Shown: one piece after another, positions 25,785-64,000 of the stretch
Layout of the letters: every line of letters begins with the position of its first letter
Position numbering within the stretch: position 1 is the first letter of the stretch
Assembly (NCBI GenBank): GCA_028282885.1
Contig: JANQGX010000059.1
Location: forward strand, 64,906 to 128,905
Direction: 5' to 3'
From: SAR324 cluster bacterium
Lineage (GTDB): Bacteria > SAR324 > XYD2-FULL-50-16
DNA length: 64,000 nucleotides
Program-made: the position numbers and the translations under genes
The notes under the pieces: model-generated
Database searches by the model: none
Told to the model about the DNA's origin: nothing
Seen by the model: the letters and a program-made list of their open reading frames with translations, nothing else

Positions 25785-27044
25785 TCAGTTCGTTCCTTGA
25801 CGGGGGGAGTAGACGTCGTTTTTATTCCAGGTACCTGAGCCTCCCAGCAGATAAGCTTTGCCTTCAACAGTACTGCAGGTTGTATTGTAACGTTCGGCGG
25901 GCAACTGTTTTCCCTGACTCCAACTATTTGTATTCGGATCATATACCTCAACCGATGTTAACGCTCCTTTGCCTCCGAAAACATAGATCCTGCCGTCAAT
26001 AACGCAACCCGAGTGCGAATAGCGAGGAGTTGGCAGCGGTGCTTTGCGTGTCCATTTATTCCTTAATGGATCATACGCTTCAACCGAATCGAGGACTTTT
26101 TTACCGTAGCGACCTCCAATAAGGTAGATCCTCCTGTTGATAACATGACTTGAATGAGAAGTCCGCTTGGTCGGCATTGTGGTTCCTTTCCGCCAGGTAT
26201 CTGTTTTTGTATCATAAATCTCTATGCTGTCAGCTGCCTGACGGCCTCCGAACACGAATATCTCTTTTTTGACAACACTGGCGGAATGGTCATATCGCCT
26301 GGTGGGTATGGGACTCCCTAATATCGAACTGTCACTTTTGGGATCGTATATCTCGATTGGTCCAATGCCTCCTTCATGGTCGTGGTTGTGTCCGGCGATA
26401 ATGTATACTTTTTTTGATACAACCGAACTTGAATGATGGTCCCTGGCGTATTTGAGCAGGGATCGTCTTTCCCAGCGATTCCTGTCCGGATGATATACCT
26501 CCACCGAGTTGATGTAATGTTTGCGCCATCCTCCTATAACATATATTTTATCCTTAACGGTGTTGCTTGAGGCATTGATCTTGGAAACGAGCATAGGGGC
26601 TTTTTCCTCCCAGGAACCTTCAATGAGGGTCTCGTCTGTCGTTAACTTCTTTCGTTGCGGATCCTTGATGACAATGACCTTCTCTGTAAATCCGTCTTCA
26701 GTTAGAAAAAATCGGATCTTTTTCGTCGGGATCCCTTCTTTCTGTGTAAATACCGAGTAGGTTCCCGCAGGACGGGAGTGATACCTGTCTCCCTTGAATC
26801 CTTTGCGATGGGAATAAACACGCCCGTAACCAAAAGCATCAGTTCGAAGTTTTTCCTCTTTACGGGTATTCAGATCGATCAGGGATAGGGTGGCGTTTTC
26901 CACCGCTTCCTTATGGTACATCACCTTTATCGAGAAGGTTCCGTGTTGTTTGAGGGCGGTGTCTTCCGGCAGAACAACAGCCGTTCCAACGGCAGCCATG
27001 GTGGCAAACACGGCAATACCGTATTGCTGTATTTTCTTGTTCAT
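25785..27044 (-). CDS. Secreted Kelch-repeat beta-propeller protein with an N-terminal transthyretin/carboxypeptidase-regulatory-like beta-sandwich
   Basis: Signal peptide (GIAVFATMAAVGTAVV). About six Kelch-type repeats (IYVIGGW, VYIIAGH, IFVFGGR, IYLIGGR, IYVFGGK, AYLLGGS, each followed by ...VE.YDP..N.W). Its ATG overlaps the TGA of the upstream gene (ATGA). Confidence 0.75.
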   Translation of the reverse strand: MNKKIQQYGIAVFATMAAVGTAVVLPEDTALKQHGTFSIKVMYHKEAVENATLSLIDLNTRKEEKLRTDAFGYGRVYSHRKGFKGDRYHSRPAGTYSVFTQKEGIPTKKIRFFLTEDGFTEKVIVIKDPQRKKLTTDETLIEGSWEEKAPMLVSKINASSNTVKDKIYVIGGWRKHYINSVEVYHPDRNRWERRSLLKYARDHHSSSVVSKKVYIIAGHNHDHEGGIGPIEIYDPKSDSSILGSPIPTRRYDHSASVVKKEIFVFGGRQAADSIEIYDTKTDTWRKGTTMPTKRTSHSSHVINRRIYLIGGRYGKKVLDSVEAYDPLRNKWTRKAPLPTPRYSHSGCVIDGRIYVFGGKGALTSVEVYDPNTNSWSQGKQLPAERYNTTCSTVEGKAYLLGGSGTWNKNDVYSPRQGTN

Positions 27045-30000
27045 TCGATCTTCGGTAGTTTCGATTGAAGGGGTTCCGGTAATTCCCTGTTTTCATTTTG
27101 CTGCAGTTGTATCGCCTGGCGACGGACAGCCGGTCGGATTTTGGCCTTGTCCAGGTGTTTCCAGATACTGAGCCAAGCCAGTTGGCGGACGTCATATTTC
27201 GCCCGGTATTCAATCGATGACCAGCCCACCAGATACACTGCTGAAGTATCTGTAATTTCAAAGAAATAAACCCAACAGGCCGGATCCTTCAGAATATGCT
27301 CATCGACCTCTGACACCGCTTTTAACAATACCGCTTTTACCTTTTCGGGATCGTGTTCGGGGTCGATATAGACTGAAATCCAGTCATTGTACATTTCACT
27401 GGGCAGACTGAAATTATGGATAAAGGATTCGGCCACGGTTGAATTGGGAATGGCAAAGATACAACCCAGTTTGTCCTCGAATCTGGTCGTTCTCCAGTTG
27501 ATATCTATGACCCGTCCTTCAGAATAGCTGCCGACTTTTACCCAGTCTCCTACATGGTAAGGGCGCTCAAGATTCAAAGCGATTCCGGAAAAAATATTCG
27601 CGATATTTAACTGGATGGCGAGACCGATGATCATCATCAGGATTCCGGAAGTCGCGATCAGCCCGGTTATTTTGAAGTCAAAGACAAAGGCGATGATACC
27701 AAAACTGGTCAACAGATAGATCAGGAAAGCCGTAAAACCCCTAATCAACCCCGGGACTTTTCTGTCAGAACGATACTCAATCGTATCAAAAATATTCTTC
27801 TGTATAACATCGTTCAGCATCTTGGCCGGAATCACCCACCACAGAACATCAAAAAATTTGGTGATAGAATCCAGGGTTGTTTCAGACACAGTGCCCAAAA
27901 GTGACTGGATCAAAGTCGTTTCCACCAAAATCAGAAGCAGAAAGGAGAGCAGGATACGGACAAAGCCCCCCATCCTGACCAGGCGCCTTTCCATTTCAAT
28001 CCGCTTTTTCTTGGTAATTCGGATAAACTGTTGCCTGCTGTCATCGTTATCCTCCAGCCAGTAAGAAAAACCCGTCTTTCGTTTCTTTTTGGTCGGCGTA
28101 GCCGGATACATCCGGAAGGCTATTTCTCCGGCTAGCTCCCCTTTAAGCCAGAAGAAAGCAGACAGCAGAAAAAGGGTGATCAGGGTCAGGTATCCCGAAA
28201 GCGGTTCGGGAATCAGAAGCCTGGGGCTGAATCGTATCTTGCTGACCTGAATCTTTGCGGTAAACCTTGAATGTTCAATGGTTTTGTCAATGTGGTCAAT
28301 ATACTTGATGTTTCCCCAAGTTCTTTTCCTTGAGATATCATGATAATACGAAGCGTCAGTGATATTCCAGCCGTGCAGAGAGTTCAGGATAGGGCCTGCC
28401 TCTTTGCCCTCCGGCCATACTTTGCCAAGCATTCCCAACTCATCCTTGATAAATTGCAGCTCTCTTCTTGTCTTATTCTTATGGCGAAAGGCAACCCCAA
28501 GCACATGGGCCCTGTACACATCGCTTGGGATAAAATCCGCTCGGAAGGTTCCTTCAACCTGGTAACGTCGGTAAACGGACTGATCGATGATTTCTTCAGC
28601 AACCGGTGGTTTCAGCTTTATCGGTTTCAACGAATTCAGAAACTCCAGAGCAGTAATATCAATGTCCCCCTGATTATACCTGAACCAGAGATAAAAATTG
28701 GCCTTAAAAGTAAGATTTTCTTCGTCCAGGCTGCTGAGTTCGATGATTTCGATTCCGGAATGCACCACACTGGTTTTATAAAAATACTCTTTCCCGACTT
28801 TGATAATCCTGCCCTCATCCAGGTCTTCCTCCAACGTACCGATCTCTTTTATATCTTTTATGATTTGAAACTGGTGAGGGGCGGGAATCAGTTGGGTTCC
28901 TTTATATATCCCCATAGCGATCGGTTTGAAAGAATTTCCTTTTTCATCAAAAAAGTTTAGACCGGTCATCCCCAGTAGTGAGTCCTTAACATTGGACAAT
29001 CCGGATATATACTCCCTTAACTTGTTGCGATCTGACTTAATAGATTCCCGGTTACCTTTCAGTTCATACTGCCGGATTCCCTCGGAGATGATCATTGCCG
29101 CATCATGGGCGTAAGCCGTATCCCATTTGGGATCAACCTCAAACCGTTTGCTGAAGCTCCTCTTGAATCGTTGGGCATTTTCATTGGCAAGTTCGTACGA
29201 AAAGGCAGACACTGCATATAACCCATCGGTATAATACCCGGGATGCATTTTTTCCTTGGGCAGGTCCTGAAACCAGAGGGTCAGATTAGTCTGGGAAAAG
29301 CCAACCGGCGTAATCACGGGATTGGGAATTTGCTCATCTTTAAGATGTTGTATTATCTGAACACTCTCATACGGATGGGTCAGCAGGATCAATGGTAGAC
29401 TGGTATCATTGGTTTTTTTGATCTCTTTGATCATCGTTATGGCGTTCTCGGTCCGGGCTTCGGATTGCACCTCCCACCGGTGTTTGATCGGTACATCCAG
29501 GGTGCGAAGGGTTTTCTGAAATTCAATGACCATCTCCTGACTGGACGAGTCCGAGCCGGCAACCAACATCACCGCTTTCGGTTCAAAGACATTGTTGATG
29601 TAATGAGCAATGAACCGTGATTGCAGGTTTAAACTGAAAACCGTCCTAAAAAGCCATTTATTATCTTCGACAGTTTCCTGCCCCATGGCGGAAGGCGTGA
29701 TGATTGGTATCCCGGCTTCCTTGTATATCTCTCCTGCTGCAAGTGTACAGGTATCACTCTGGTGTCCGATGACTGCTATCGCCCTCCCCTCTTCCACAAT
29801 TTTAGACGCGATTTTTACAGCGGTCACCGGGTCATTGTGGTCATCGTACACATCCAGTCTCAGTTCATTGCTGTGAATTCCTCCCTGCTGGTTAAGATTC
29901 CGGATATATAGCCGAGTCGCATTCACGTAGCTATCCTGCTTCTCGTCAGGTCCGATGACAGCTATATGTAGCGCTGATCTGTCTGCCGAATAGAAGTGCT

Positions 30001-30076
30001 TGATCCAGAATAGTGGCTGAATCAGGATAATCAGGGTGATGACGATTTTTACAGGTATACTTTTATAGTTAATCAT
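27041..30076 (-). CDS. Fusion protein: periplasmic type-1 (LivK/Peripla_BP_6-like) ligand-binding domain, a domain of unknown function, and a C-terminal MscS-family mechanosensitive channel domain
   Basis: Signal/TM at the N-terminus. A LivK-like PBP (ALHIAVIGPDEKQD...AIAVIGHQSDTC...GIPIITPSA). TM helices at about residues 640-800. The MscS pore helix and beta-domain (IIGLAIQLNIANIFSGIALNLERPYHVGDWVKVGSYSEGRVIDINWRTTRFE). ATGA overlaps on both sides. Confidence 0.75.
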   Translation of the reverse strand: MINYKSIPVKIVITLIILIQPLFWIKHFYSADRSALHIAVIGPDEKQDSYVNATRLYIRNLNQQGGIHSNELRLDVYDDHNDPVTAVKIASKIVEEGRAIAVIGHQSDTCTLAAGEIYKEAGIPIITPSAMGQETVEDNKWLFRTVFSLNLQSRFIAHYINNVFEPKAVMLVAGSDSSSQEMVIEFQKTLRTLDVPIKHRWEVQSEARTENAITMIKEIKKTNDTSLPLILLTHPYESVQIIQHLKDEQIPNPVITPVGFSQTNLTLWFQDLPKEKMHPGYYTDGLYAVSAFSYELANENAQRFKRSFSKRFEVDPKWDTAYAHDAAMIISEGIRQYELKGNRESIKSDRNKLREYISGLSNVKDSLLGMTGLNFFDEKGNSFKPIAMGIYKGTQLIPAPHQFQIIKDIKEIGTLEEDLDEGRIIKVGKEYFYKTSVVHSGIEIIELSSLDEENLTFKANFYLWFRYNQGDIDITALEFLNSLKPIKLKPPVAEEIIDQSVYRRYQVEGTFRADFIPSDVYRAHVLGVAFRHKNKTRRELQFIKDELGMLGKVWPEGKEAGPILNSLHGWNITDASYYHDISRKRTWGNIKYIDHIDKTIEHSRFTAKIQVSKIRFSPRLLIPEPLSGYLTLITLFLLSAFFWLKGELAGEIAFRMYPATPTKKKRKTGFSYWLEDNDDSRQQFIRITKKKRIEMERRLVRMGGFVRILLSFLLLILVETTLIQSLLGTVSETTLDSITKFFDVLWWVIPAKMLNDVIQKNIFDTIEYRSDRKVPGLIRGFTAFLIYLLTSFGIIAFVFDFKITGLIATSGILMMIIGLAIQLNIANIFSGIALNLERPYHVGDWVKVGSYSEGRVIDINWRTTRFEDKLGCIFAIPNSTVAESFIHNFSLPSEMYNDWISVYIDPEHDPEKVKAVLLKAVSEVDEHILKDPACWVYFFEITDTSAVYLVGWSSIEYRAKYDVRQLAWLSIWKHLDKAKIRPAVRRQAIQLQQNENRELPEPLQSKLPKIE

Positions 30077-30831
30077 GGTTTACCGGTTTCTTGTTGCTTT
30101 TCTTTCATCAGTTTTTTTAGCTCTTTTTTGACAGATTTTTCCACTTCAACAAACCGCATTCCAAATCCCTTCGGAATATCTGTTTTTTGCCCTTTGTTGA
30201 CCCAGATAATCCTTGCTTCGATTTCAACCGTATGATTCTCTTCCAGGGTTAACTGCAATCTGAAAGGTTCATTCTGCTGTACGGTCTCCTCACTGATCAG
30301 GTAAAGTCCGCTTTTTGACAGATCGTGGGTGAACCCTTCAATCGTTTGGCGACTGTTTTCAATCACTGCTTTCAAGGCGGTTTTAACCCGGGGATCGTGT
30401 TTCCACCATTGCAGTCTGGGATGGAAAAAGGGTGCTCGCAGCTCCCTTGATAGCAGTGAACCGACAATAACGAGGCTGGATGTTATAAAAATTGTGTACT
30501 CCCAGGTAGTGAATGCGGTTTCAGCTCCAGTGAAAACCGAAATGCTCACCGATATTATCACCGCGCCAAAATACGCCAGGGACAGTATCCAACCGATCAG
30601 GTGAGATACAAATATCGCAATGGCGATAAAGGGAGAAACAAGGACGAATAACGTGTTTTGAATATCAAAGAGCCAGCTCCAATGAGTAAGACTTAAGTAT
30701 CTATAATCATTAACCGTAAAGCTGTAAGCAATAAACAGTACCGGAGAGAAAGCGTGAATTAACGCCAAAAGGTTTATTGTGAAGGGTTTGCTGGTAACTC
30801 CTTTTAACGCTGCTTGTTTGTTCATAGCCAT
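30073..30831 (-). CDS. 4-TM membrane protein with a C-terminal PilZ-like (candidate c-di-GMP-binding) domain
   Basis: Four hydrophobic helices in the N-terminal 130 aa. The cytoplasmic C-terminal domain has an R-rich segment (SRELRAPFFHPRLQ) and the DxSxxG motif (HDLSKSGLYL) typical of PilZ. Its stop overlaps the start of the PBP-MscS gene. Confidence 0.45.
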   Translation of the reverse strand: MAMNKQAALKGVTSKPFTINLLALIHAFSPVLFIAYSFTVNDYRYLSLTHWSWLFDIQNTLFVLVSPFIAIAIFVSHLIGWILSLAYFGAVIISVSISVFTGAETAFTTWEYTIFITSSLVIVGSLLSRELRAPFFHPRLQWWKHDPRVKTALKAVIENSRQTIEGFTHDLSKSGLYLISEETVQQNEPFRLQLTLEENHTVEIEARIIWVNKGQKTDIPKGFGMRFVEVEKSVKKELKKLMKEKQQETGKP

Positions 30832-30981: not shown

Positions 30982-31464
30982 TTAGTCCGTTTTTTTAAAG
31001 TTGAACTTATACAAAACGTACGCGTTTCGACCGGTCAGTGGGGGAGGAGGGAATCGCCAGGTTTTAATTTTGGATATCAGGCATGCCTCAAGGACGGGAT
31101 GATTGATCTGGGAATTGACAATTTCCGGTGAAAGGGCTTTCCCATCCGCATCCACCTGCCAGTCGATCGAAATCACACCGTCGGTTGTCTGTGGTGGCGG
31201 AGTTACTTCAAGAAAGCGCTTGTAGCAGCCGTTCATCTCCTTCCATTTTTTAGCAATGGTGTTGCGGACTTCGTTTTTAATGTACGGCGACACGTCTGAT
31301 TTTCTATTGTTTCCGTTTTCCATTTGGCGGGGTGTCGTTTGATAGACAACCGCGGTTTGCGACTCGCGAAAAACGATCACGGCCAGAAGGACAATCACCG
31401 TTGCCAACAGGGCGACAATCAAAATCGTTTTAACTCTTTCTTGCGGATGTTGGTTTTTGTTCAT
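30982..31464 (-). CDS. Membrane-anchored hypothetical protein (single N-terminal TM, Pro-rich linker, C-terminal TonB-C/AgmX-like domain?)
   Basis: TM (ILIVALLATVIVLLAVIVF), a PPPQ segment and a C-terminal about 70-aa domain. The resemblance to the TonB-C fold is weak. Confidence 0.3.
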   Translation of the reverse strand: MNKNQHPQERVKTILIVALLATVIVLLAVIVFRESQTAVVYQTTPRQMENGNNRKSDVSPYIKNEVRNTIAKKWKEMNGCYKRFLEVTPPPQTTDGVISIDWQVDADGKALSPEIVNSQINHPVLEACLISKIKTWRFPPPPLTGRNAYVLYKFNFKKTD

Positions 31465-31685: not shown

Positions 31686-33752
31686 CTAAAATAACAGGCG
31701 GAAGGCTTCGCAATGCCGAAACGTTTTTCTGAAAAGTTCCTTGTCGAGATTGACGGATGTTTGTTTCGAGACTTCAAGTAAATTAATAGCCAGCTTGTTG
31801 TCGCAAAAGGGGTACTGCACTGCCATTTGCGAGGTTATGTTCACCGCATCTTGCATCAATTCCAGCTTATCTTGTGGGCCTGTGGTGCCCGTGTTGATCC
31901 ACTTGGTCCGGTTCACCAGAAACTGTCGATGGATTTCCAGTTGTTTGGCAAGATACAACCCGGAGGTCTGCTCGACAACTCTTCTGAACAGACCGTCGGC
32001 TTTTTCATAGTTTTTTCGGATCACATTTTCGATCTGGGCACTGATCAGCACGGCTTCCCGGTGGTGCTCCAGTGCCGGGTGATGCCGACTGGCCTCAAAA
32101 AGCAGTTTGCTTATCTTACCGATAACCGCATCCCGATGAAAAGACCACTGCTTTCGGTAGACTCCCTGTTCATACCTGTCCAGAATCAGCAGGGAATCTT
32201 CCACCAATCCGGGATGAATGCTCGGCTTCGCCACCGTTTCTTCAACGACTTCGTAATACAAGCCGAGCGATCGGTAATGGAGTGGGAATCGGGCGGTTTC
32301 ATTGTTGAAGTACCTGAGTTTCTCTGTTGTAAACACACGTCTTCCCTCTTGAAACCGGGCAGTAATAAAATTGAGGATGGGGAGTCGTCTGTCTTTGAAA
32401 GCCGGATGCTTTTTCGAGCTGAACGGTTTCACCGGGACCAATACACCGACCTGGGACGTTACCAGGATGTCCGGCCGGATCTTTTCGACAAAATGCACAT
32501 ACGCCACCGGTCCGTGATCTGTATCGTCGTTGAGCAGCAGAACCGAGTTTCGCGGTAAATGATTGAGCAGCAATCCGGCATAATCTGCTGCAAAGGTATC
32601 CTGTCGAAGATTGTTTGCTTGAAAACTGTCAACCAAGGACCAACCGACAACTGTCACACCGACCAGGAGCGTAAGGAAATGCAAACCCGGCCTGACATTC
32701 CCTGCCAGATCCCTCAGCAAGGTCAGGCCGAAACCCAAATACACTGCACAAACAGATAGTGGAATCAGCAATGTGAATCGGTAGAAATCCCGCGTCAGGT
32801 CCGTGAATTCAGCTCGCCAGAACACAAGTAAAAAAACGGAACTGGACAAGACACCCAACGTCAGTCCGACAGCAATTGTTTTGGGTTTATGAAACCAAGT
32901 AGCGATAAATCCAAGGATGATAATCGGGAACGCAAGCGGTGAAAACTCGCTGATCAGATTTTCGACAAAAAAGGTTATGAATTTCAGACTGTGACCAATC
33001 GAAGCGGTTTTTAATACGTCGATTCCCGCATAGTTTTGGCGGGAGAGATAAGCCCACAAATCCGAAACATTGTTAATGGGGTTGAGAAAGAGGAACTGGC
33101 TGTGAAAATGAGCGGTAACCAGATGAAAATAGGGAAGCAACCCAAGAAAAAGACAACAAAGGACAAGCCAACTATCCCTCAATATCTCCTTTATTCTACC
33201 TGCGAGTAATATCGGAAAAGCGCCTGAAGCCAGTACGAGCAGTGGAAAATGATTGGACAGACCCAATCCGTATACGAAGGAAAACACGACCAGACACTGC
33301 CTGGTATAGTTTTCCCTGAGCTTTAATGCCAACACTAATAGCGCCAGAAACAAGCAGGCATTGAGCATGTAGACTTCGGCGACGATCGCCTGATGCCCGA
33401 AAGATGCGGATACTCCCAGCGCCAAAGCGGATATGCAGGCGATTTTTTTATCCCCGGTCAGACTACCGACAATCGAATGTACCAAAAGACAGGCAAGAAT
33501 CGCTAAAATCGAATTCAGCAGGTGGATTTTGAATGCGACGGTTCCGAACGGCAAAAAAGTAAAACATTTGGCCAGGAGTGTGTACAACGGATAGCCGGTT
33601 GGTTGGGGAATCCCGAAAAAATAGGAGGTCACCAGGAAGATGCCGGAATCTTCCATGGTGACGGTGTTCGACGAAGAATATAAATATAACGGCAATAATA
33701 AGCAGAACATCGGCAACGCCGGTCTTCCGCATATCCGGTCAATGATTCTCAA
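31686..33752 (-). CDS. DUF2723 / TMEM260-family GT-C-fold integral membrane glycosyltransferase-like protein (protein O-mannosyltransferase-like) with a C-terminal soluble domain
   Basis: About 11 TM helices in the first about 400 aa. The conserved N-terminal block MEDSGIFLVTSYFFGIPQPTGYPLYTLL matches the DSG...GIxHPPGYPLY signature of DUF2723/TMEM260. The C-terminal about 280 aa are soluble. Confidence 0.6.
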   Translation of the reverse strand: MRIIDRICGRPALPMFCLLLPLYLYSSSNTVTMEDSGIFLVTSYFFGIPQPTGYPLYTLLAKCFTFLPFGTVAFKIHLLNSILAILACLLVHSIVGSLTGDKKIACISALALGVSASFGHQAIVAEVYMLNACLFLALLVLALKLRENYTRQCLVVFSFVYGLGLSNHFPLLVLASGAFPILLAGRIKEILRDSWLVLCCLFLGLLPYFHLVTAHFHSQFLFLNPINNVSDLWAYLSRQNYAGIDVLKTASIGHSLKFITFFVENLISEFSPLAFPIIILGFIATWFHKPKTIAVGLTLGVLSSSVFLLVFWRAEFTDLTRDFYRFTLLIPLSVCAVYLGFGLTLLRDLAGNVRPGLHFLTLLVGVTVVGWSLVDSFQANNLRQDTFAADYAGLLLNHLPRNSVLLLNDDTDHGPVAYVHFVEKIRPDILVTSQVGVLVPVKPFSSKKHPAFKDRRLPILNFITARFQEGRRVFTTEKLRYFNNETARFPLHYRSLGLYYEVVEETVAKPSIHPGLVEDSLLILDRYEQGVYRKQWSFHRDAVIGKISKLLFEASRHHPALEHHREAVLISAQIENVIRKNYEKADGLFRRVVEQTSGLYLAKQLEIHRQFLVNRTKWINTGTTGPQDKLELMQDAVNITSQMAVQYPFCDNKLAINLLEVSKQTSVNLDKELFRKTFRHCEAFRLLF

Positions 33753-33892
33753 TACTGTCCTTTCGTATAATCAGTCTTGTTCCGATCGGCAGGATCGGGA
33801 TACAGTCTGCTCCCCTGTTCAGCGATATTAAATGGTTGGCGTCAATTCTGCAGTCGACAGGCTTCGGAATTGAGGTCGAACTTTGTTGTCGG

Positions 33893-36800
33893 CTATTGAT
33901 AGACGTACACCGCCCCGGAACTGGAACTGTTGTTGTCGCTGCTGGCGGTGGTGCCATTGGTGATAGTGGCTTGGTCGCTGTCTTCAAAATCTGCTCCCAC
34001 CGCTAGGGTTCCATTAGATAGGAACACGGTTGTTCCAAATTTGTCGGTAGCCTCGCTGTTGGCGGCCTTTATATAGGACTGCTGACTCCAGACAGTACCG
34101 TTGCGAGCATAGACGTACACCGCCCCGGAACTGGGACTGTTGTTGTCGCTACTGGCGGTTGTACCGCCGGTGATAGTGGTTTGGCTGCTGTCTTCATTTG
34201 GTGCTCCTACGACCAGAGTGTCGCCGGATAGGGATACGGCATTTCCGAAACGGTCGCCAGCGTTGTTGTTGGAAGCCTTAATATATGCTTGTTGGCTCCA
34301 AGAGGTACCGCTACGGGTATAGACATATACCGCTCCGGAATCCGCGCTGCTGTCGTTGCTGCTGGCAGCAGTGCCGTTGGTAACTATAGTCTGGTTGCTG
34401 TCTTCCAAGTAAGCTCCCACGGCCAGAGTGTCTCCGGACAGGGAAACGGCATTCCCGTAATAGTCATTGGTGCTGCTGTTAGCGGCCTTGATATAGGCTT
34501 GCTGGCTCCAGTTGGTCCCGCTGCGAGTATAGACATACACTGCCCCGGAGTTGGAATTGCCGTCGTCGCTGCTTGCGGTGGTACCGTTGGTGATCGTAGT
34601 CTGGTTACTGTCTTCTTGATCGACTCCTACGGCCAGAGTATCGCCGGAGAGGGAAACGACCTTTCCGAATTCGTCATAGGCGTCGTTATTGGCGGCCTTG
34701 ATATAGGCCTGCTGGCTCCAGTCTGTTCCGCTGCGGGAATAGACGTATATTGCCCCGGCACTCGTATTGCTGTTGTTGCTGTCGGCGGTGGTGCCGTTGG
34801 TAATCGTTGTCTGGTTGCTGTCTTCCTCATGAGCTCCTACGGCCAGGGTGTCGCCGGATAGCGAAACAGCTCTACCGAAATAGTCATTGGTCTCGTTGTT
34901 GGCGGCTTTGATGTAGGCCTGCTGGCTCCAGTCTGTTCCGCTGCGGGAATAGACGTACACCGCCCCGGATTGCAGATTGCCGTCGTTGCTGCTTGCGGTG
35001 GTGCCGTTGGTGATTGTAGTCTGGTTGCTGCTTTCGCACCAGGCTCCCACAGCCAGGGTGTCGCCGGATAAGGAAACCGCGTGTCCGAAACGGTCGTTGT
35101 TGTCGTTATTGACGGCCTTGATGTAGGCCTGCTGGCTCCAGTCGGTTCCGCTGCGGGAATAGACGTACACCGCCCCGGATTGCGGATTGCTGTTGTTGCT
35201 GCTTGCGGCGGTGCCGTTGGTAATCGTAGTCTGGTTGCTGGCTTCTCTCTCAACTCCCACGGCCAGGGTATCACCGGATAAGGAAAGGGCCTGTCCAAAC
35301 TGGTCCCAGTCTTCACTGTTGGCGGCCTTGATAAAGGCCTGTTGGCTCAGACTGGCGGTGACGGTGACGGTGACGGTATAATTCTGGGTCGAGCTGTCCC
35401 CAGCCGTAACGATATAGGTAACGGCACTGCTGAAGTCGTTGGCGGTGGAACCGCTGGTCTGGTTGGTCCCACCCACTGCAATCGAAGATCCGGTGGTTGT
35501 GAAGGTGGCCACCAGGGCAGTGACGTCCGTTCCGGAAGGAACCGTGGCCGAAATATTGGTGCCGGAGACGGTGGCGGTCACATCCGAAGAGAGGGCACTG
35601 TTGTCGGCAGCGAGGAAAGAGAAGGCCGTGATCTCCTTGGCAGATGACGAAGCCGTGATAACGGTGACGGTATAATTCTGGGTCGAGTTGTCCGCAGCCG
35701 TGACAGTATAGGTAACGGCGCTGCTGAAGTTGTTGGCGGTGGAACCGCTGGTCTGGTCGGTCCCACCCACAGCAACCGAAGATCCGGTGGTTGTGAAGGT
35801 GGCCACCAGGGCAGTGACGTTCGTTCCGGAAGGAACCGTGGCCGAAATATCGGTGCCGGAGACGGTGGCGGTTACATCCGAAGAGAGGGCGCTGTTGTCG
35901 GCAGCGAGAAAGGAAAAAGCCGTGATCTCTTTGTCGGATACCGAGGCCGTGGAAACGGTGACGGTATAATCTTGGATCGAGCCGTCCGCAGCCGTGACGG
36001 TGTAGGTAACGGCACTACTGAAGTCGTTGGCTGTGGAGCCGCTGGTCTGGTCGGTACCATCCACCGCAACCGAAGATCCGGTGGTGCTAAAGATGGCCAC
36101 CAAGTCGGTGACGTCAGTTCCGAAAGGAACCGTGGCTGATATGTCGGTGCCGGAGACGGTGGCGTTTACATCCGAAGAGAGGGCGCTGTTGTCGGCAGCG
36201 AGAAAGGAAAAAGCCGTGATCTCTTTGGCGGATACCGAGGCCGTGGAAACGGTGACGGTATAATCCCGTGTTGTGTTGTCCGCGGCAGTGACAGTATAGG
36301 TAACGGTGCTGCTGAAGTCGTTGGCTGTGGAACCGCTGGTCTGGTCGGTACCGTCCACCGCAACCGAAGATCCAGTGGTGCTAAAGGTGGCCACCAGGGC
36401 GGTGACGTCTGTTTCGAAAGGAACCGTGGCTGATATGTCGGTGCCGGAGATGGTGGCTGTTACATCCGAAGAGAGGGTGCTGTTGTCGGCAGCGAGAAAG
36501 GAAAAAGCCGTGATCTTTTTGGCGGATACCGAGGCCGTGGAAACGGTGACGGTATAGTCCTGTGTTGTATTGTCCTCAGACGTAACGGTATAGATAACGG
36601 CGCTGCTGAAGTCGTTGGCGGTGGAACCGCTAGTCTGGTCGGTACCGTCCACCGCAACCGAAGATCCGGTGGTGCTAAAGGTGGCCACCAGGGCGGTGAC
36701 GTCTGTTTCGAAAGGAACTGTGGCTGATATGGCGGTGCCGGAGATGGTGGCGGTTACATCCGATGAAAGGGTGCTATTGTCGGCAGCGAGAAAAGAAAAG

Positions 36801-36925
36801 GTCATAATCTTTTTGTCGTCTGAGTCTGAAGAACTGCCGCTATCCTGGCAGGCGACAGTAAACACCAGAGCCAAGATGGCCGGAAGTAAGCGTCGTATTA
36901 ACCAAAACTTTAGAGAATGGTTCAT
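33893..36925 (-). CDS. Lipoprotein: five near-identical 98-aa Ig-like tandem repeats followed by a seven-bladed FG-GAP (integrin-alpha-like) beta-propeller
   Basis: Lipobox (LALVFTVACQD). Five repeats of ITAFSFLAADNS.LSSDVTATISGT.ISATVP..TDVTALVATF.TTGSSVAVDGTDQTSGSTANDFSSAVTYTVTA.D..TQDYTVTV. Seven repeats of QQAYIKAANS...FG.AVSLSGDTLAVGA..EDSNQTTITNGT.ASS....SGAVYVY.RSGT.WS, which is the FG-GAP consensus. Confidence 0.8.
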   Translation of the reverse strand: MNHSLKFWLIRRLLPAILALVFTVACQDSGSSSDSDDKKIMTFSFLAADNSTLSSDVTATISGTAISATVPFETDVTALVATFSTTGSSVAVDGTDQTSGSTANDFSSAVIYTVTSEDNTTQDYTVTVSTASVSAKKITAFSFLAADNSTLSSDVTATISGTDISATVPFETDVTALVATFSTTGSSVAVDGTDQTSGSTANDFSSTVTYTVTAADNTTRDYTVTVSTASVSAKEITAFSFLAADNSALSSDVNATVSGTDISATVPFGTDVTDLVAIFSTTGSSVAVDGTDQTSGSTANDFSSAVTYTVTAADGSIQDYTVTVSTASVSDKEITAFSFLAADNSALSSDVTATVSGTDISATVPSGTNVTALVATFTTTGSSVAVGGTDQTSGSTANNFSSAVTYTVTAADNSTQNYTVTVITASSSAKEITAFSFLAADNSALSSDVTATVSGTNISATVPSGTDVTALVATFTTTGSSIAVGGTNQTSGSTANDFSSAVTYIVTAGDSSTQNYTVTVTVTASLSQQAFIKAANSEDWDQFGQALSLSGDTLAVGVEREASNQTTITNGTAASSNNSNPQSGAVYVYSRSGTDWSQQAYIKAVNNDNNDRFGHAVSLSGDTLAVGAWCESSNQTTITNGTTASSNDGNLQSGAVYVYSRSGTDWSQQAYIKAANNETNDYFGRAVSLSGDTLAVGAHEEDSNQTTITNGTTADSNNSNTSAGAIYVYSRSGTDWSQQAYIKAANNDAYDEFGKVVSLSGDTLAVGVDQEDSNQTTITNGTTASSDDGNSNSGAVYVYTRSGTNWSQQAYIKAANSSTNDYYGNAVSLSGDTLAVGAYLEDSNQTIVTNGTAASSNDSSADSGAVYVYTRSGTSWSQQAYIKASNNNAGDRFGNAVSLSGDTLVVGAPNEDSSQTTITGGTTASSDNNSPSSGAVYVYARNGTVWSQQSYIKAANSEATDKFGTTVFLSNGTLAVGADFEDSDQATITNGTTASSDNNSSSSGAVYVYQ
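35340..36840. repeat. Five tandem copies of an about 294-nt unit (intragenic), high nucleotide identity
   Basis: Directly visible as re-occurring strings (e.g. gtgacggtgacggtataat..., ccggtggt(g/t)gt(g/a)aaggtggccaccagggc(a/g)gtgacgtc). The shadow-ORF products in the six-frame track are also near-identical. Confidence 0.85.
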
Positions 36926-59531: not shown

Positions 59532-61277
59532 TCAATCAATGCCGTGCTTTTCCATATATCTATAAAGGGTGTTTCTGCCAATTCCCAATGCTTTGGCAGT
59601 CTTGGCTTTATTCCATCGGTTTGCTTCCAGGGTTTGAATCAGCACTTCTTTCTTCAGTTTTGAAGCGTATAGAAAAGGAGATTCGGTGCTTTTGTTCTGA
59701 TATTCTGCGATCTCTTTGGGAATATGCTCCAATGAAATATATGTTCCTGAGCACAAAATACAGGCATGCTCAACAGCATTCCGCAATTCTCGAATATTAC
59801 CTGGCCATGGATAGGTCAGAAAGCGATGCATCGTCTGATCTAAAAATCCTTCGATCGGTTTGTTCACAGACTTGTTGAAGGTGTCGAAGAAATGCTGACA
59901 TAGCAAAGGAATATCTTCAGTTCTTTTTCTTAGCGGTGGTAGTTCGACCAGCATTCCCTTGAGGCGATAATAAAGATCTTCACGAAACGCTTTTTTCTCT
60001 ATTTTTTCCCTGAGATCGACATTTGTTGCTGCCACAACCCGAACATTGACGCGATTCGTTTTTGATTCACCAATTCGTTCAAACTCTTTCTGTTCAAGGA
60101 CCCTAAGAAGTTTCACCTGCATTTGGGGAGAAATATCTCCGATCTCGTCAAGAAATATCGTGCCTTGATCAGCCGCCTGAAACCGACCGATTCGATTCTC
60201 TATCGCACCGGTGAATGCACCTTTAACATGGCCGAACAGCTCGCTCTCAAGGAGACTTTCGGATAAAGCAGCACAATTAACCTTTATTAGCGGACCTTTG
60301 GACCGACTACTCCCGTAATGTAGGGCTTCAGCAATGAGTTCCTTTCCGGTTCCGCTTTCGCCGAAAATTAGAACGGACGTTTCAACATCAGCTATTTGCT
60401 CCAGTAATGCATAAATCTTCTGCATGGATTCGCTTTTTCCGATGATATTTCGAAATCCCTGGCGTTCCTGGAGTTTTGCTTCAAGCTCAGTTAATCGTGT
60501 AATATCATTTACGATCAGTAGAGTTCCCTGAAAATCCAGGCTCGGACCCGCCAAGGGGATCGTGCTTAAACTGATGGTTCTTTTCCTCTTTTTCGAATCC
60601 GCACGAAAAACCATGCGATTCGTCACCGGCGCTCCTGATTCAAATGTGTCTTTGATTACCCGATGGCAAACATCATCCTTGTCTTTGAAAACTTTCTGAA
60701 GCGTTTCAACCGAATCTGTTGGCTTGTCACAAATTGGATTGGGTATTCGGTTGACACTGAGAAGATTGAAATCTTTATCAACAGCAATCAGCGTTTCCGG
60801 AATACCTTGTATAATTGCATTCATCAGCAAGTTCGAGTGTTCTTTTTCTGCCACCGCCTCACTTAATGAATGACGGGTTTCAGCCAATTGCAAGTGATTC
60901 CGAATCCTTACTTTCACTTCCTCCGCATGAAAAGGTTTGGTCACATAATCATTGCCTCCGACTTCGAATCCTCGGATTTTATCTTCCAGCTCCTTTAATG
61001 CACTTAGGAATATGATGGGGATCTCCTTCAAGTGATCAATTTCCCGGATTTTTTTGCAGACTTCATATCCATTCATATCCGGCATATTCACATCCAGTAG
61101 AATCAGATCAAAAGAACTGGAACAGACCCAATCCATTGCTTCCTCACCATCCATGGCAAATTCGACCGTAAATCCTTCGTTTTTCAGAATGCTGCCAAGC
61201 AACTGGATATTGTTGGGTTCATCATCGACGATAAGAATGGAATTAAACGCGCTTTCTTTATAATCCACATCGTTCAT
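59532..61277 (-). CDS. Sigma-54-dependent response regulator (REC, PAS, AAA+ sigma-54 activator, HTH)
   Basis: Receiver domain (ILIVDDEPNNIQ...ILLDVNMPDMNG). PAS domain. Walker A (IFGESGTGKELIAEALH). GAFTGA motif (FGHVKGAFTGA). C-terminal Fis-type HTH. The start was chosen at MNDVDY (AAGGA RBS 9 nt upstream); the ORF extends to 61553. Confidence 0.85.
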   Translation of the reverse strand: MNDVDYKESAFNSILIVDDEPNNIQLLGSILKNEGFTVEFAMDGEEAMDWVCSSSFDLILLDVNMPDMNGYEVCKKIREIDHLKEIPIIFLSALKELEDKIRGFEVGGNDYVTKPFHAEEVKVRIRNHLQLAETRHSLSEAVAEKEHSNLLMNAIIQGIPETLIAVDKDFNLLSVNRIPNPICDKPTDSVETLQKVFKDKDDVCHRVIKDTFESGAPVTNRMVFRADSKKRKRTISLSTIPLAGPSLDFQGTLLIVNDITRLTELEAKLQERQGFRNIIGKSESMQKIYALLEQIADVETSVLIFGESGTGKELIAEALHYGSSRSKGPLIKVNCAALSESLLESELFGHVKGAFTGAIENRIGRFQAADQGTIFLDEIGDISPQMQVKLLRVLEQKEFERIGESKTNRVNVRVVAATNVDLREKIEKKAFREDLYYRLKGMLVELPPLRKRTEDIPLLCQHFFDTFNKSVNKPIEGFLDQTMHRFLTYPWPGNIRELRNAVEHACILCSGTYISLEHIPKEIAEYQNKSTESPFLYASKLKKEVLIQTLEANRWNKAKTAKALGIGRNTLYRYMEKHGID

Positions 61278-61549
61278 TTCATTTTTCGAATCCTTAGGTG
61301 GGAAATAAGTGCTGAGATGGCAGGGGGTCACATCAGATTCCCTACCCCTTAACAGGAATCCTGACCTATGATCCGAACTTCCAGGTCCAGGAATCCCATG
61401 TAGTTTATTTGAGGTTACCTGTTTTGATCTGACTGGGCAATTGAGAAAAAAACGTAAGACGGAGTTCATGAAGAGATGTGCAAATAGGTTTATCTTCTTA
61501 TTCGGATGGTAGGAAATCAGGCAGGTCCTGAAAGCCTGCCTGAAGATAA

Positions 61550-64000
61550 TCACCTGAAGATGTAAACTGCGCCGTTGTTGCTTCCATCGTCATTGGCTTC
61601 AGACAGGTCACTTCCATGGATGATATCGGTGCTGTTACTGTCTTCTCCGCTTGCTGAGATAGCAATCGTATCTGCATCCAGAGCAACTGATACACTGAAA
61701 TCATCCAGATTTCCGTTGTTTGGCGACTTGAGATAGGCTGTATGAGACCAGGTGGATCCATTTCTGCTGAACAGGTAGGCGGCACCATTCATATTACCAT
61801 CATTGTTTGTATCAGAAACATCACTGCCGTAAATGATCGAACTTGTCGATCCGTCCTCACTGGCTGCTCTGACCAGAAGCCGATCTTCATCTAAAGAAAG
61901 AGACCTGTTGCTGAAATAATCTGAACTTGAATTATTTGGAGCTTTTAAATATGCTTCATGGCTCCAGGTCGAATCAGATCGGGTAAATATGTAAACAGCA
62001 CCACTATTACTGCTGGTCCCGGCACTGTCGGCATCCGAAAGATCGCTGCCGTGGATAATGCTGCTATATGCGCTGTCCTCACCCATCGACCCAACAGCGA
62101 CCGTGTCACTATCAATAGCAAGAGCACTGCCGAAATAATCCTGGTCTGAGTTATTCGGTGCTTTCAAATAGGCTTCATGGGACCAGGTTGAACCGCTTCG
62201 TGTAAAAACATAAACAGCACCATTATCCGCTCCGCCCATGGAAGCCGCAGACAGGTTGCTTCCGTGAATAATAGTTGATGAATCACCATTTTCATTAGGT
62301 GAGGAGGCGACAATGGTATCCCCTGAAATAGCCACTTGTGTTCCAAAACAGCCTTGTGCGTCATTCGGTGCTTTCAGGTAAGCTTCATGACTCCAGGTTG
62401 AACCGGTCCTCGTAAAGACGTATGCTGCACCGATTTGGTCTCCATCATTATTTGTAGCTGACAAATCACTACCATGAATAATTGATGTTGTTTCACTCAT
62501 TTCATCTGGTGCCCCCACCACAATCGTGTCCCCGGAAATGGCAACCGAAGAACCAAACAGATGCTCTTCATTACCGTTTGGAGCTTTCAGGTAAGCTTCC
62601 AGGGACCACGTTGATCCACTTCGTGTAAAGACATATGCCGCACCATTTAATGTTCCTAAATCATTTGCATCCGACAGATCACTGCCGTGGATGATCGAAG
62701 TCGTGTTGCTCTCCTCATACCTTGCTCCCACCACAATGGTGTCACCTTCAATATCAAGGGCATAGCCAAACTGGTCACCGGTTGATGTATTCGGCGCTTT
62801 CAGGTATGCCTCTAAAGCCCAGGTAGATCCAGTTCTGCGGTAAACATGGACAGCCCCGCTTTCTACTCCATCATCATTTGTTGTCGAAAGATCACTTCCA
62901 TGAATAATCTCGGTGGTTGAGGAAGCTTCCTTATATACCCCTACAGCAAGCGTATCTCCTGATAAAGCAACACGATATCCAAATTGATCTTCATCTGATG
63001 TATTTGGGGCTTTCAAGTATGCTCTGTGACTCATTGAAATCTGTGTCGCTGTGACAATGTAGTCCGTTGATTCACCATCAGCAGCAGTGACGGTGTAGAT
63101 AACAGCTCCGGAAAAATCATTTGCTGATATTCCGCTGATCTGGGTTGAACCATCGACTGTAACAGATTCCCCGGTAGTGGAAAATGTAGCGATCAAACTG
63201 CTATCTTCAACAAGATAGGACAGATCAACTGAGATTGTTCCGTTTTCCTCATCAATGACACCCTCTAAATCTACGCTCACCCCGTCATTGTCTGTTGCGT
63301 TGAAACTGAAGTCTGTGATTGCCTTAGCCGTATTCGCCGCCCAGGAGACTGATACAGTATAGTCCTGTGTTGTGTTATCTGCAGCAGTGACAGTGTAGGT
63401 TACTGCATCACTAAAGTTGTTTTCTGTCGTTCCGCTGGTTTGGACGGTGCCTGAAACTGTCACGGTTTCACCGGTTGTTGTGAAATCAGCGATTAAACTG
63501 GTGAGGTCCGTTCCATACGGCACAGTTAGTGTTATATTGGTTCCACTGATCGTTGCAGCAGCATCACTGGAAAGCGCTGAATTGCTGTCAGCGGTAAAAC
63601 TGAAAGCGATTATCTCCTTATCAGAAGAATAGCTGACAACAGTTCCCGTAAGATCAGGTTCTCCGTCCCCATCGGTATCAATACCGCTGATATTGCCATC
63701 ATCGTCTTTTGTGATTGTCAGTACTGTACCGGAACCATTCTCTGAAGTATTCAATTCTGCTCTGCCTGTGGTTTCGTCAAGAATCCTCAAATAGAAATCA
63801 ACCTCATTGTCTTCAGTTACATCCACAGCATAGGTGGTGCTGGCAGATGTCGATGTACTGACATTTCTGTTTGAAGTTGTACTATCGGATTGCAGAAAAA
63901 CGAATTCCAGAGAATCTGTATCATTGTCCAGATCAACTCCATCCATACTATTATCCCCATCCTGGTCCACCAATGTGCCATTCACCGTGCCCCCGTCATA
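61550..64000 (-). CDS. Paralogous FG-GAP beta-propeller protein with Ig-like repeats; C-terminal part only, the N-terminus lies beyond the right window edge
   Basis: Two Ig-like repeats of the same family as in 33893-36925 (IIAFSFTADSNSALSSDAAATISGTNITLTVPYGTDLTSLIADFTTTGETVTV...). At least seven repeats of YLKAPN....FG..VAISGDTIVVGA..E.S.TSIIHGSDLS..N..G...GAAYVFTR.GSTWS.EA (FG-GAP). Stop at 61550. Confidence 0.75.
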   Translation of the reverse strand, partial: YDGGTVNGTLVDQDGDNSMDGVDLDNDTDSLEFVFLQSDSTTSNRNVSTSTSASTTYAVDVTEDNEVDFYLRILDETTGRAELNTSENGSGTVLTITKDDDGNISGIDTDGDGEPDLTGTVVSYSSDKEIIAFSFTADSNSALSSDAAATISGTNITLTVPYGTDLTSLIADFTTTGETVTVSGTVQTSGTTENNFSDAVTYTVTAADNTTQDYTVSVSWAANTAKAITDFSFNATDNDGVSVDLEGVIDEENGTISVDLSYLVEDSSLIATFSTTGESVTVDGSTQISGISANDFSGAVIYTVTAADGESTDYIVTATQISMSHRAYLKAPNTSDEDQFGYRVALSGDTLAVGVYKEASSTTEIIHGSDLSTTNDDGVESGAVHVYRRTGSTWALEAYLKAPNTSTGDQFGYALDIEGDTIVVGARYEESNTTSIIHGSDLSDANDLGTLNGAAYVFTRSGSTWSLEAYLKAPNGNEEHLFGSSVAISGDTIVVGAPDEMSETTSIIHGSDLSATNNDGDQIGAAYVFTRTGSTWSHEAYLKAPNDAQGCFGTQVAISGDTIVASSPNENGDSSTIIHGSNLSAASMGGADNGAVYVFTRSGSTWSHEAYLKAPNNSDQDYFGSALAIDSDTVAVGSMGEDSAYSSIIHGSDLSDADSAGTSSNSGAVYIFTRSDSTWSHEAYLKAPNNSSSDYFSNRSLSLDEDRLLVRAASEDGSTSSIIYGSDVSDTNNDGNMNGAAYLFSRNGSTWSHTAYLKSPNNGNLDDFSVSVALDADTIAISASGEDSNSTDIIHGSDLSEANDDGSNNGAVYIFR

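Follow-up and report, generated by a model that had tools for sequence, protein, structure and literature searches.

Does a bacterial member of the TMEM260 family glycosylate the integrin-like lipoprotein encoded beside it? This question is raised by a locus in a stretch of 64,000 nucleotides (nt) from a SAR324 cluster bacterium (contig JANQGX010000059.1, positions 64,906 to 128,905; called the window in the following), in which the gene of a 688-amino-acid (aa) glycosyltransferase of the GT-C type, hereafter the GT-C, directly follows the gene of a lipoprotein with a propeller of FG-GAP_2 repeats. A first-pass annotation had read the two as a candidate protein O-glycosylation pair, in which the enzyme would decorate five Ig-like repeats of the lipoprotein in parallel to human TMEM260 acting on plexins. 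The role of TMEM260 as a protein O-mannosyltransferase has been shown recently, and loss-of-function variants cause human disease; the 2023 TMEM260 paper mentions only 'distant homologs in bacteria'. In the literature that we searched, no function or substrate has been assigned to bacterial DUF2723, and we found nothing on glycosylated FG-GAP lipoproteins. Our analysis points to a three-gene envelope module, consisting of the propeller lipoprotein, the GT-C and a small TonB_C-like protein, in which the GT-C may O-glycosylate the exported lipoprotein as its putative substrate. We give this reading a probability of roughly 0.4. Both open reading frames (ORFs) were found on the minus strand with boundaries that agree exactly with the first-pass annotation (Table 1).

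Judged by its sequence, the 688-aa protein is a bona fide member of the TMEM260/DUF2723 family, as had been proposed. The suggested Pfam check gave 63.6 bits on PF11028 (TMEM260-like, cutoff 24.2) over residues 35–176, and human TMEM260 (9rql_A) was the only real match among the PDB sequences (phmmer, E=3.3e-25, residues 12–434 aligned to 29–465). A profile of the clade around the window GT-C matched human TMEM260 with E=4.4e-53, the alignment reaching the catalytic D441. The family signature is present as D35-S-G followed by G47-I-P-Q-P-T-G-Y-P. On PMT_2 (PF13231) the protein scored 23.7 bits, under the cutoff of 26.1, and it is therefore not counted to PMT/GT39. The AlphaFold2 (AF2) model of the GT-C, built with 43 homologues, had a predicted local distance difference test score (pLDDT) of 92 and a predicted template modelling score of 0.92; it shows a multi-transmembrane core (about residues 1–400), a Rossmann-like domain (about 400–505, with strands in 404–503) and an all-helical C-terminal domain (about 514–687) in this order. 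All Foldseek matches of the model were GT-C enzymes (STT3, PglB, ArnT, AftA, ALG9/12 and Pmt4).

Cryo-electron microscopy of TMEM260 has placed D52 and H67 in a sugar-recognition motif (D52A is inactive and mutation of H67 abolishes activity), R264 and Y267 in a donor-loading loop and R355 in transmembrane helix 10 (TMH10); the Rossmann-like domain contributes D441 as catalytic base, and an Asn ladder of the TPR domain binds the acceptor (preprint 10.64898/2026.03.17.711096). We observed that most of these positions are kept. D52 corresponds to D35 (in T-M-E-D-S-G), the conserved Asp of the first extracytoplasmic loop to which attention had been drawn, and 42 of the 43 aligned family members have D at this site. 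R264 corresponds to R238, invariant in the 10-member clade (10 of 10), and Y267 to Y241, which is Y in 8 of the 10. The catalytic base D441 aligns with D410 by phmmer as well as by the profile, and D410 is again invariant in the clade; in the wider alignment of 43 sequences this column holds D in 18 only, probably in part through alignment noise. The equivalent of R355 is ambiguous and no residue was assigned. The GT-C gene starts with TTG, with AAGGA 5 nt upstream. The public gene call (database protein P0001) is 656 aa long and starts at Met33 (MEDSG...), by which transmembrane helix 1 is lost (window 33657–33752, minus strand); we favour the upstream TTG because of the homologues, the AF2 helix at 12–26 (pLDDT above 90) and the AAGGA ribosome-binding site.

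An association of gene neighbourhoods had been named beforehand as the test that could refute the pairing. We analyzed flanks of up to 10 kb, shorter on some contigs (4.2 kb upstream in locus L012 and 1.7 kb in L088), around DUF2723 genes, taken from metagenomes and from a set with a single genome for each species, and searched them for FG-GAP_2 with a hidden Markov model (HMM) built from the window blades and iterated once. The best match of the GT-C among GTDB representatives had 36% identity, and a metagenome scan for further clade members gave 35% as the best among the matches listed. Within the clade, 5 of the 10 informative members, the window counted, have an FG-GAP_2 lipoprotein gene immediately 5' of the GT-C gene and in the same orientation. 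Besides the window these are P0002 (62% enzyme identity to the window); P0004 (L007, 58%), where the lipoprotein has 1669 aa and combines DUF5018 and PKD with two FG-GAP_2 propellers; P0007 (L004-6, Leptospiraceae, 30%), with at least five tandem He_PIG and FG-GAP_2 lipoproteins upstream; and L008 (Leptospiraceae UBA2033, 36%), with an upstream FG-GAP_2 fragment at the contig edge. P0003 (59%) is uninformative, as the contig ends 160 bp upstream. The linked members thus span three deep branches (58–62%, 36% and 30% identity), and the gene order varies by branch (FG-GAP, GT-C, small gene versus FG-GAP, small gene, GT-C), which argues against frozen synteny.

Outside the clade, the HMM found no FG-GAP_2 in some 2 Mb of flanks from about 155 other DUF2723 loci, and in about 190 kb of clade flanks it found one extra copy only. 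The association with FG-GAP_2 is a property of one clade and not of the DUF2723 family: the predicted linkage was borne out inside the clade, whereas a family-wide association with FG-GAP or Ig-repeat lipoproteins had to be rejected. The commonest same-strand neighbour at the non-clade loci was GT2 (14 of 123 neighbour ORFs), and the one GT2 looked at in detail carries a fused GtrA/DPMS transmembrane domain. This is the signature of polyprenyl-phosphate-sugar synthases, the well-known partners of enzymes with such donors, and lends indirect support to a donor of that type. Other same-strand neighbours among the 123 were YfhO-type GT-Cs (6), TMEM260-like paralogues (4) and TPR proteins (4). At single loci we recorded some peculiarities. 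Upstream of the GT-C in P0005/L088 lies a divergently transcribed gene with a PEGA domain (L088:3–1430, minus strand). In the 'Leptospiria' metagenome-assembled genome (MAG) of L010, a 1148-aa protein precedes and overlaps the clade GT-C (L010:6522–9965); it has no Pfam match, carries N-terminal transmembrane segments and a long Lys/Glu-rich coiled-coil region, and may be an alternative partner there. The GT-C of the Leptospiraceae MAG of L170 is broken into overlapping ORFs of 235 and 454 aa (L170:11754–13818), either by a frameshift (pseudogene) or by an assembly error.

The lipoprotein starts with a signal peptide that, read by pattern from the sequence, ends in the lipobox ...ALVFTVA-C26; the call fits the PROSITE-type pattern. 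It continues with five repeats of 98 aa (Tandem Repeats Finder (TRF): period 294 bp, 4.9 copies, 90% matches) and seven FG-GAP_2 repeats of 70 aa (PF14312, 216.9 bits; TRF, 210 bp x 6.9). The blades of the propeller were modelled by AF2 with pLDDT of about 90–97, and Foldseek matched them to integrin alpha with E=1e-15 (alpha4, alphaV, alpha5), in full agreement with the lipoprotein and integrin-like propeller that had been annotated. Serine and threonine together make up 38% of the repeats and 26% of the propeller, compared to 12.8 +/- 1.9% (standard deviation) in 22 other ORFs of the window. Number, length and Ser/Thr content of the repeats therefore stand as described, but their Ig-like nature is weakly supported, and it is here that the observation is least secure: they reached 35.4 bits summed on PF22243 (DUF5018-related, cutoff 28.1) with no single stretch passing, they weakly match the N-terminal beta-domain of PDB 3hbz (E=0.0024), and AF2 predicted beta-strands at low confidence (pLDDT 50–60). 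A Pfam scan of the lipoprotein gave no match to TIG/IPT (PF01833), and a regular-expression search found neither the TMEM260 sequon P-x5-P-x3-G-P-x2-[GA]-G-G-x2-[TS] nor its core [GA]GG-x-x-[TS]; only 9 of the 1010 residues are prolines. The parallel drawn to plexin and its IPT domains does not carry over to these DUF5018-type repeats.

Regarding the propeller more closely, we observed that strands 2 and 3 of each window blade are joined by the loop E-x-S-N-Q-T-T-I-T-N-G-T-T-A-S-S (an example from the blades is VGAHEEDSNQTTITNGTTADSNNS). This loop, which we call type B, has 20 aa, reads SNQTTITNGTTAS(S/A)DNS and is nearly invariant; it occurs in every linked propeller and follows the pattern E-[DSA]-S-N-Q-T-T-I-T-N-G-T-T-A-S-[SA]-D-N-S. 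The usual loop of the FG-GAP_2 family, which gave more than 2800 matches at E<1e-10 in many phyla, has 17 residues, SNATGVNGNQADNSA (S-N-A-T-G-V-N-G-N-Q-A-D-N-S-A). A second, unlinked paralogue in the window shows a third loop type, S-x-T-T-x-I-I-H-G-S-D-L-S; it also has DUF5018-like repeats and neither a GT-C nor a small-protein neighbour. A possible second GT-C beside it (59532–61553) was rejected, this gene being a sigma-54 response regulator. All partner proteins at the other loci carry lipoboxes, and their N-terminal domains vary: DUF5018-like in the window, L007 (with PKD) and L173, He_PIG in L004-6, and no Ig-like domain in L169 and L172, in which the lipobox or a short Ser/Thr linker leads into the propeller. 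Common to the linked lipoproteins are the lipidation signal, the propeller and the type-B loop, not Ig-like repeats, so that the repeats fail as the basis of the pairing and the propeller with its Thr-rich loop takes their place. The blade loop also holds N-x-T motifs (N-Q-T, N-G-T), with the full bacterial N-glycosylation sequon D-S-N-Q-T in three blades (aa 702, 772 and 842). N-linked glycosylation by a PglB-type enzyme is not favoured, since the neighbouring enzyme resembles TMEM260 rather than STT3. No PglB/STT3-type enzyme was found in the window. In L173 (8520–8560), and also in L174 and L175, the partner gene has an in-frame TAG where a Gln codon is usual (DST*DYVVTV), located between its DUF5018-like and FG-GAP_2 parts; since it is present in all three contigs found (three ENA assembly samples), it is a real nonsense mutation or a read-through site.

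The third member of the module had been missed in the two-gene pair of the first-pass annotation, which stands as far as the linkage of GT-C and lipoprotein goes. In the small protein an N-terminal transmembrane helix is connected by a short linker to a TonB_C-like domain. The protein scored 25.6 bits on PF03544 (TonB_C, cutoff 24.6) and 64.1 on NF033768 (AgmX/PglI C-terminal domain, cutoff 40), and lies far below the equivalog cutoffs of GltG (48.5 versus 650) and GltJ (15.8 versus 450). A word-based search gave nine homologues. The orthologues share the motifs SPY..EV.NTI, CYN, DW.i..DG and FPPPP and adjoin GT-C and/or type-B FG-GAP_2 genes in L001, L004-6, L007, L008/L170, L012, L169, L172, L173 and the contigs of P0002 and P0003. 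The small gene lies 3' of the GT-C in P0002, P0003 (as P0211) and L007, and directly 5' of it in L004-6, L008 and L012, abutting or overlapping the GT-C start (4-bp gap in L004, overlap in L012). Reverse look-ups were started from propellers with the type-B loop, and L173-175 were reached from the small-protein homologue P0209. By these look-ups the small protein was found to adjoin the type-B gene in 7 of the 8 type-B loci examined; the pair of propeller lipoprotein and small protein occurs in 8 lineages, in 5 of which the GT-C joins. No other gene accompanies the GT-C and propeller genes as constantly as that of the small protein. One of these loci, L170, is of the same lineage as L008 and has FG-GAP_2, small protein and GT-C in that order.

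Table 1. Features of the module and related elements, in positions of the 64,000-nt window
Feature	Position	Strand	Basis
FG-GAP_2 lipoprotein gene, 1010 aa, candidate acceptor	33893..36925	-	ORF; PF14312, 7 repeats
Signal peptide and lipobox (MNHSLKFWLIRRLLPAILALVFTVA then C26), followed by acidic Ser-rich linker (QDSGSSSDSDDKK)	36848..36925	-	Sequence reading
Five tandem 98-aa Ser/Thr-rich Ig-like (DUF5018-related) repeats, aa 38-527	35345..36814	-	TRF, repeat listing, PF22243, PDB 3hbz
Seven-bladed integrin-alpha-like FG-GAP_2 beta-propeller, aa 528-1010	33896..35344	-	TRF, blade listing, AF2, Foldseek
140-bp intergenic spacer, lipoprotein gene to GT-C gene	33753..33892	-	Sequence
TMEM260/DUF2723-family GT-C glycosyltransferase, 688 aa	31686..33752	-	PF11028, PDB 9rql match, AF2
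GT-C key residues D35, Q50, R238, Y241, D410	within 31686..33752	-	Alignment to TMEM260
Small TonB_C-like / AgmX-PglI-C-terminal-domain protein, 160 aa, N-terminal membrane anchor	30982..31464	-	PF03544, NF033768
Second FG-GAP_2 paralogue, running past the window end; not in module	61550..64000	-	2 DUF5018-like repeats and 7 blades

From this linkage we infer an enzyme–substrate relation, for which the following course is conceivable. The lipoprotein would be exported unfolded through Sec and would meet the active site of the GT-C at the interface of membrane and periplasm, formed by D35 in the first loop, R238 and Y241 in the donor-loading loop and D410 as the general base in the Rossmann-like domain. 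The donor would be a polyprenyl-phosphate monosaccharide, most likely a hexose such as mannose, supplied by a GT2 enzyme encoded in another part of the genome. The GT-C would pass the sugar on to Ser/Thr while the chain is still extended and unfolded, as happens with TMEM260 in the endoplasmic reticulum. Its most likely targets would be the repeated Thr-rich propeller loops (SNQTTITNGTTAS), with the Ser/Thr-rich Ig-like repeats or the linker as possible additional sites. Binding to an extended strand of the partner is typical of TonB_C domains, and the small protein, presumably anchored in the inner membrane and periplasmic, may serve as an adaptor or anchor that binds the extended lipoprotein strand, or as a co-subunit of the enzyme. 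We also considered a bolder form of this course, a sequon-directed and domain-specific bacterial O-glycosylation in which the GT-C and the TonB_C-like adaptor put one sugar on the SNQTTITNGTTAS loop of every blade at the Sec exit. This would be a counterpart, possibly a forerunner, of metazoan receptor O-mannosylation and the first assigned substrate of a bacterial DUF2723, but in so specific a form we regard it as rather unlikely.

Several findings weigh against O-glycosylation of the lipoprotein by the GT-C. H67 of TMEM260 corresponds to Q50 of the window GT-C (in GIPQPTGYP), which is notable because mutation of H67 kills TMEM260; the position is H in 39 of the 43 aligned sequences and Q only in the window, P0002, P0004 and P0005. 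Half of the informative clade members have a GT-C gene with flanks (up to 10 kb) free of FG-GAP_2, namely P0006 (L003, identical to L009; 36% identity), L010 (32%), L012 (29%; 4.2 kb upstream), L024 (30%) and P0005 (L088; 48%; 1.7 kb upstream). On the propeller side, L169 and L172 consist of FG-GAP_2 followed by the small protein and L173-175 of DUF5018/FG-GAP_2 followed by the small protein, in all cases with no GT-C within 10 kb, and the type-B gene of L171 has neither the small protein nor the GT-C as a neighbour. As such pairs occur without the GT-C, the tightest pair is propeller and small protein, not propeller and enzyme. No polyprenyl-phosphate-sugar synthase (GT2/DPMS-like) was found among the approximately 40 ORFs scanned in the 64-kb window, and the choice of the Thr-rich loop as acceptor site is purely what we infer. 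The GT-C might instead act on a lipid, an envelope glycan or the small protein, with the propeller as a lectin, adhesin or structural partner and the genes linked through one envelope structure. Some integrin-like FG-GAP propellers are indeed lectins, for example the Psathyrella velutina lectin. Such a different acceptor would account for the greater constancy of propeller and small protein and for L012, where GT-C and small protein occur without a propeller in the 4.2 kb of upstream sequence; many of the best fold matches (ArnT, AftA, ALG9/12) act on lipids or glycans, and the change from H67 to Q could mean a different donor or acceptor. However, the nearest characterised relative in sequence is a protein O-mannosyltransferase whose protein-directed base D441 is kept as the clade-invariant D410, the partner is exported and has an extreme Ser/Thr content, and the window scans revealed no glycan-assembly genes nearby. 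We consider a non-lipoprotein acceptor doubtful, though it deserves serious attention.

The genes may also have no functional tie at all and simply have been inherited together in a lineage rich in FG-GAP_2, the GT-C being a general or unrelated envelope glycosyltransferase. FG-GAP_2 is frequent (two in the 64-kb window, at least five in tandem in L004-6, more than 2800 database homologues), the neighbour is missing in 5 of 10 clade members, and the closest three positives (58–62% identity) may simply share ancestry. Shared ancestry of the lineages also makes the linkage statistics rough, with a binomial tail for at least 5 of 10 of 6e-5 at an assumed background of 5% and of about 1e-8 at the approximately 1% suggested by the flanks. 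We nevertheless hold mere synteny to be unlikely, as the linkage is kept down to 30% enzyme identity with the gene order rearranged, neither the loop subtype nor the small protein changes from case to case, the FG-GAP_2 gene is always upstream on the same strand, and FG-GAP_2 was absent from about 2 Mb of flanks of other DUF2723 genes and, apart from the linked copies, occurred only once more in about 190 kb of clade flanks. The original idea of a domain-specific O-mannosyltransferase for the five Ig-like repeats, directly parallel to TMEM260 on the IPT domains of plexin/MET, draws on the 38% Ser/Thr of the repeats, on their weak Ig-like Pfam and PDB matches and on the recurrence of DUF5018-like repeats in the partners of the window, L007 and L173. 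TMEM260 moreover tolerates substantial variation of its sequon (10.64898/2026.09.21.753134). Yet the repeats are not IPT/TIG, the sequon and its core are absent and prolines are scarce, linked partners have He_PIG or no Ig-like domain, and the unlinked window paralogue has DUF5018-like repeats too, which makes this version very improbable.

The O-glycosylation of the propeller lipoprotein, if true, would have consequences beyond this locus. It would mean that domain-specific O-glycosylation of repeated beta-domains is older than eukaryotes, it would add a new bacterial route of protein glycosylation outside the Pgl/PglL/Pmt systems, and it would account for a subtype of integrin-like surface lipoproteins that is widespread among environmental bacteria, Leptospiraceae-related ones included. 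Neither the conserved trio nor the loop subtype nor the TonB_C-like partner appears to have been described before. The organisms that carry the module are uncultured; the locus offers a testable candidate set of enzyme, substrate and adaptor, with three genes, a candidate acceptor loop that recurs from blade to blade, and catalytic residues that can be pinpointed. Should glycosylation be refuted, the module would still define an uncharacterised pair of propeller lipoprotein and TonB_C-like protein.

With regard to the locus itself, neither a terminator-like nor a promoter-like site was found on the coding strand of the 140-bp gap, and co-transcription of the lipoprotein and GT-C genes is plausible from the sequence. 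The G+C content is 0.57 over the FG-GAP_2 gene (34001–36000) compared to about 0.45 in the rest of the window, with a strong positive GC skew; the cause may be the Ala/Gly/Ser/Thr-rich repeats, or the gene may be of foreign origin. Downstream, a packed run of genes on the same strand (25785–30831, minus strand) encodes a membrane PilZ protein (30073–30831), a fusion of a periplasmic binding domain and an MscS channel (27041–30076), which overlaps the PilZ gene, and a Kelch beta-propeller protein (25785–27044), which overlaps the gene of the MscS fusion. This run is kept in the near-identical contig L001 and not beside P0002.

Finally, we compared the module to known systems. The small protein resembles the TonB C-terminal domain and Myxococcus AgmX-PglI (GltG/GltJ) in that it passes PF03544 and NF033768, but it has only 160 aa, lacks a proline-rich spacer and has neither ExbBD nor gliding-motor genes in its vicinity. 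The lipoprotein shares the seven-bladed FG-GAP propeller with integrin alpha and FG-GAP_2 proteins (E=1e-15; PF14312, 216.9 bits); unlike integrin alpha it is a bacterial lipoprotein with no beta-subunit, and it differs from common FG-GAP_2 proteins by the 20-aa Thr-rich type-B loop between strands 2 and 3 in place of the 17-aa SNATGVNGNQADNSA. With the GtrA/GtrB/GtrC and ArnC/ArnT systems the GT-C has a similar fold in common (ArnT, Foldseek E=2e-5), and DUF2723 genes lie family-wide most often beside GT2. Those systems, however, modify lipid A or O-antigen and not proteins, and the window has no GT2 partner, the clade having the lipoprotein and TonB_C-like neighbours instead.

Actinobacterial Pmt (GT39, e.g. 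Mycobacterium tuberculosis Rv1002c) carries out Sec-coupled O-mannosylation of secreted proteins and lipoproteins; it is a GT-C that uses polyprenyl-phosphate-mannose on Thr/Ser-rich stretches of unfolded exported, often lipidated, proteins. The mode of action predicted for the window GT-C would by analogy resemble that of Pmt, although the two belong to different families (PMT_2, 23.7 versus 26.1) and the window GT-C has no MIR domain; genetic linkage of Pmt to a dedicated substrate is not known. Human TMEM260 (PDB 9RQL/9RQM/9RQN), the O-mannosyltransferase for IPT domains, differs from the window GT-C in that identity is only about 20–25%, H67 is replaced by Q50, and detectable sequence similarity ends at about residue 434 of the GT-C, which leaves the acceptor-binding TPR domain with its Asn ladder outside the alignment. 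The candidate substrate has no IPT domain or sequon, the donor would be a bacterial polyprenyl-phosphate sugar, and the TonB_C-like partner has no counterpart on the side of TMEM260. Nevertheless, both enzymes belong to PF11028 and can be aligned from the transmembrane core into the luminal or periplasmic domain, equivalents of D52, R264, Y267 and D441 are kept, the AF2 model suggests the same domain order of GT-C core, Rossmann-like and helical domain, and in both cases the acceptor, for the bacterial enzyme a candidate one, is exported and built of repeated beta-domains.

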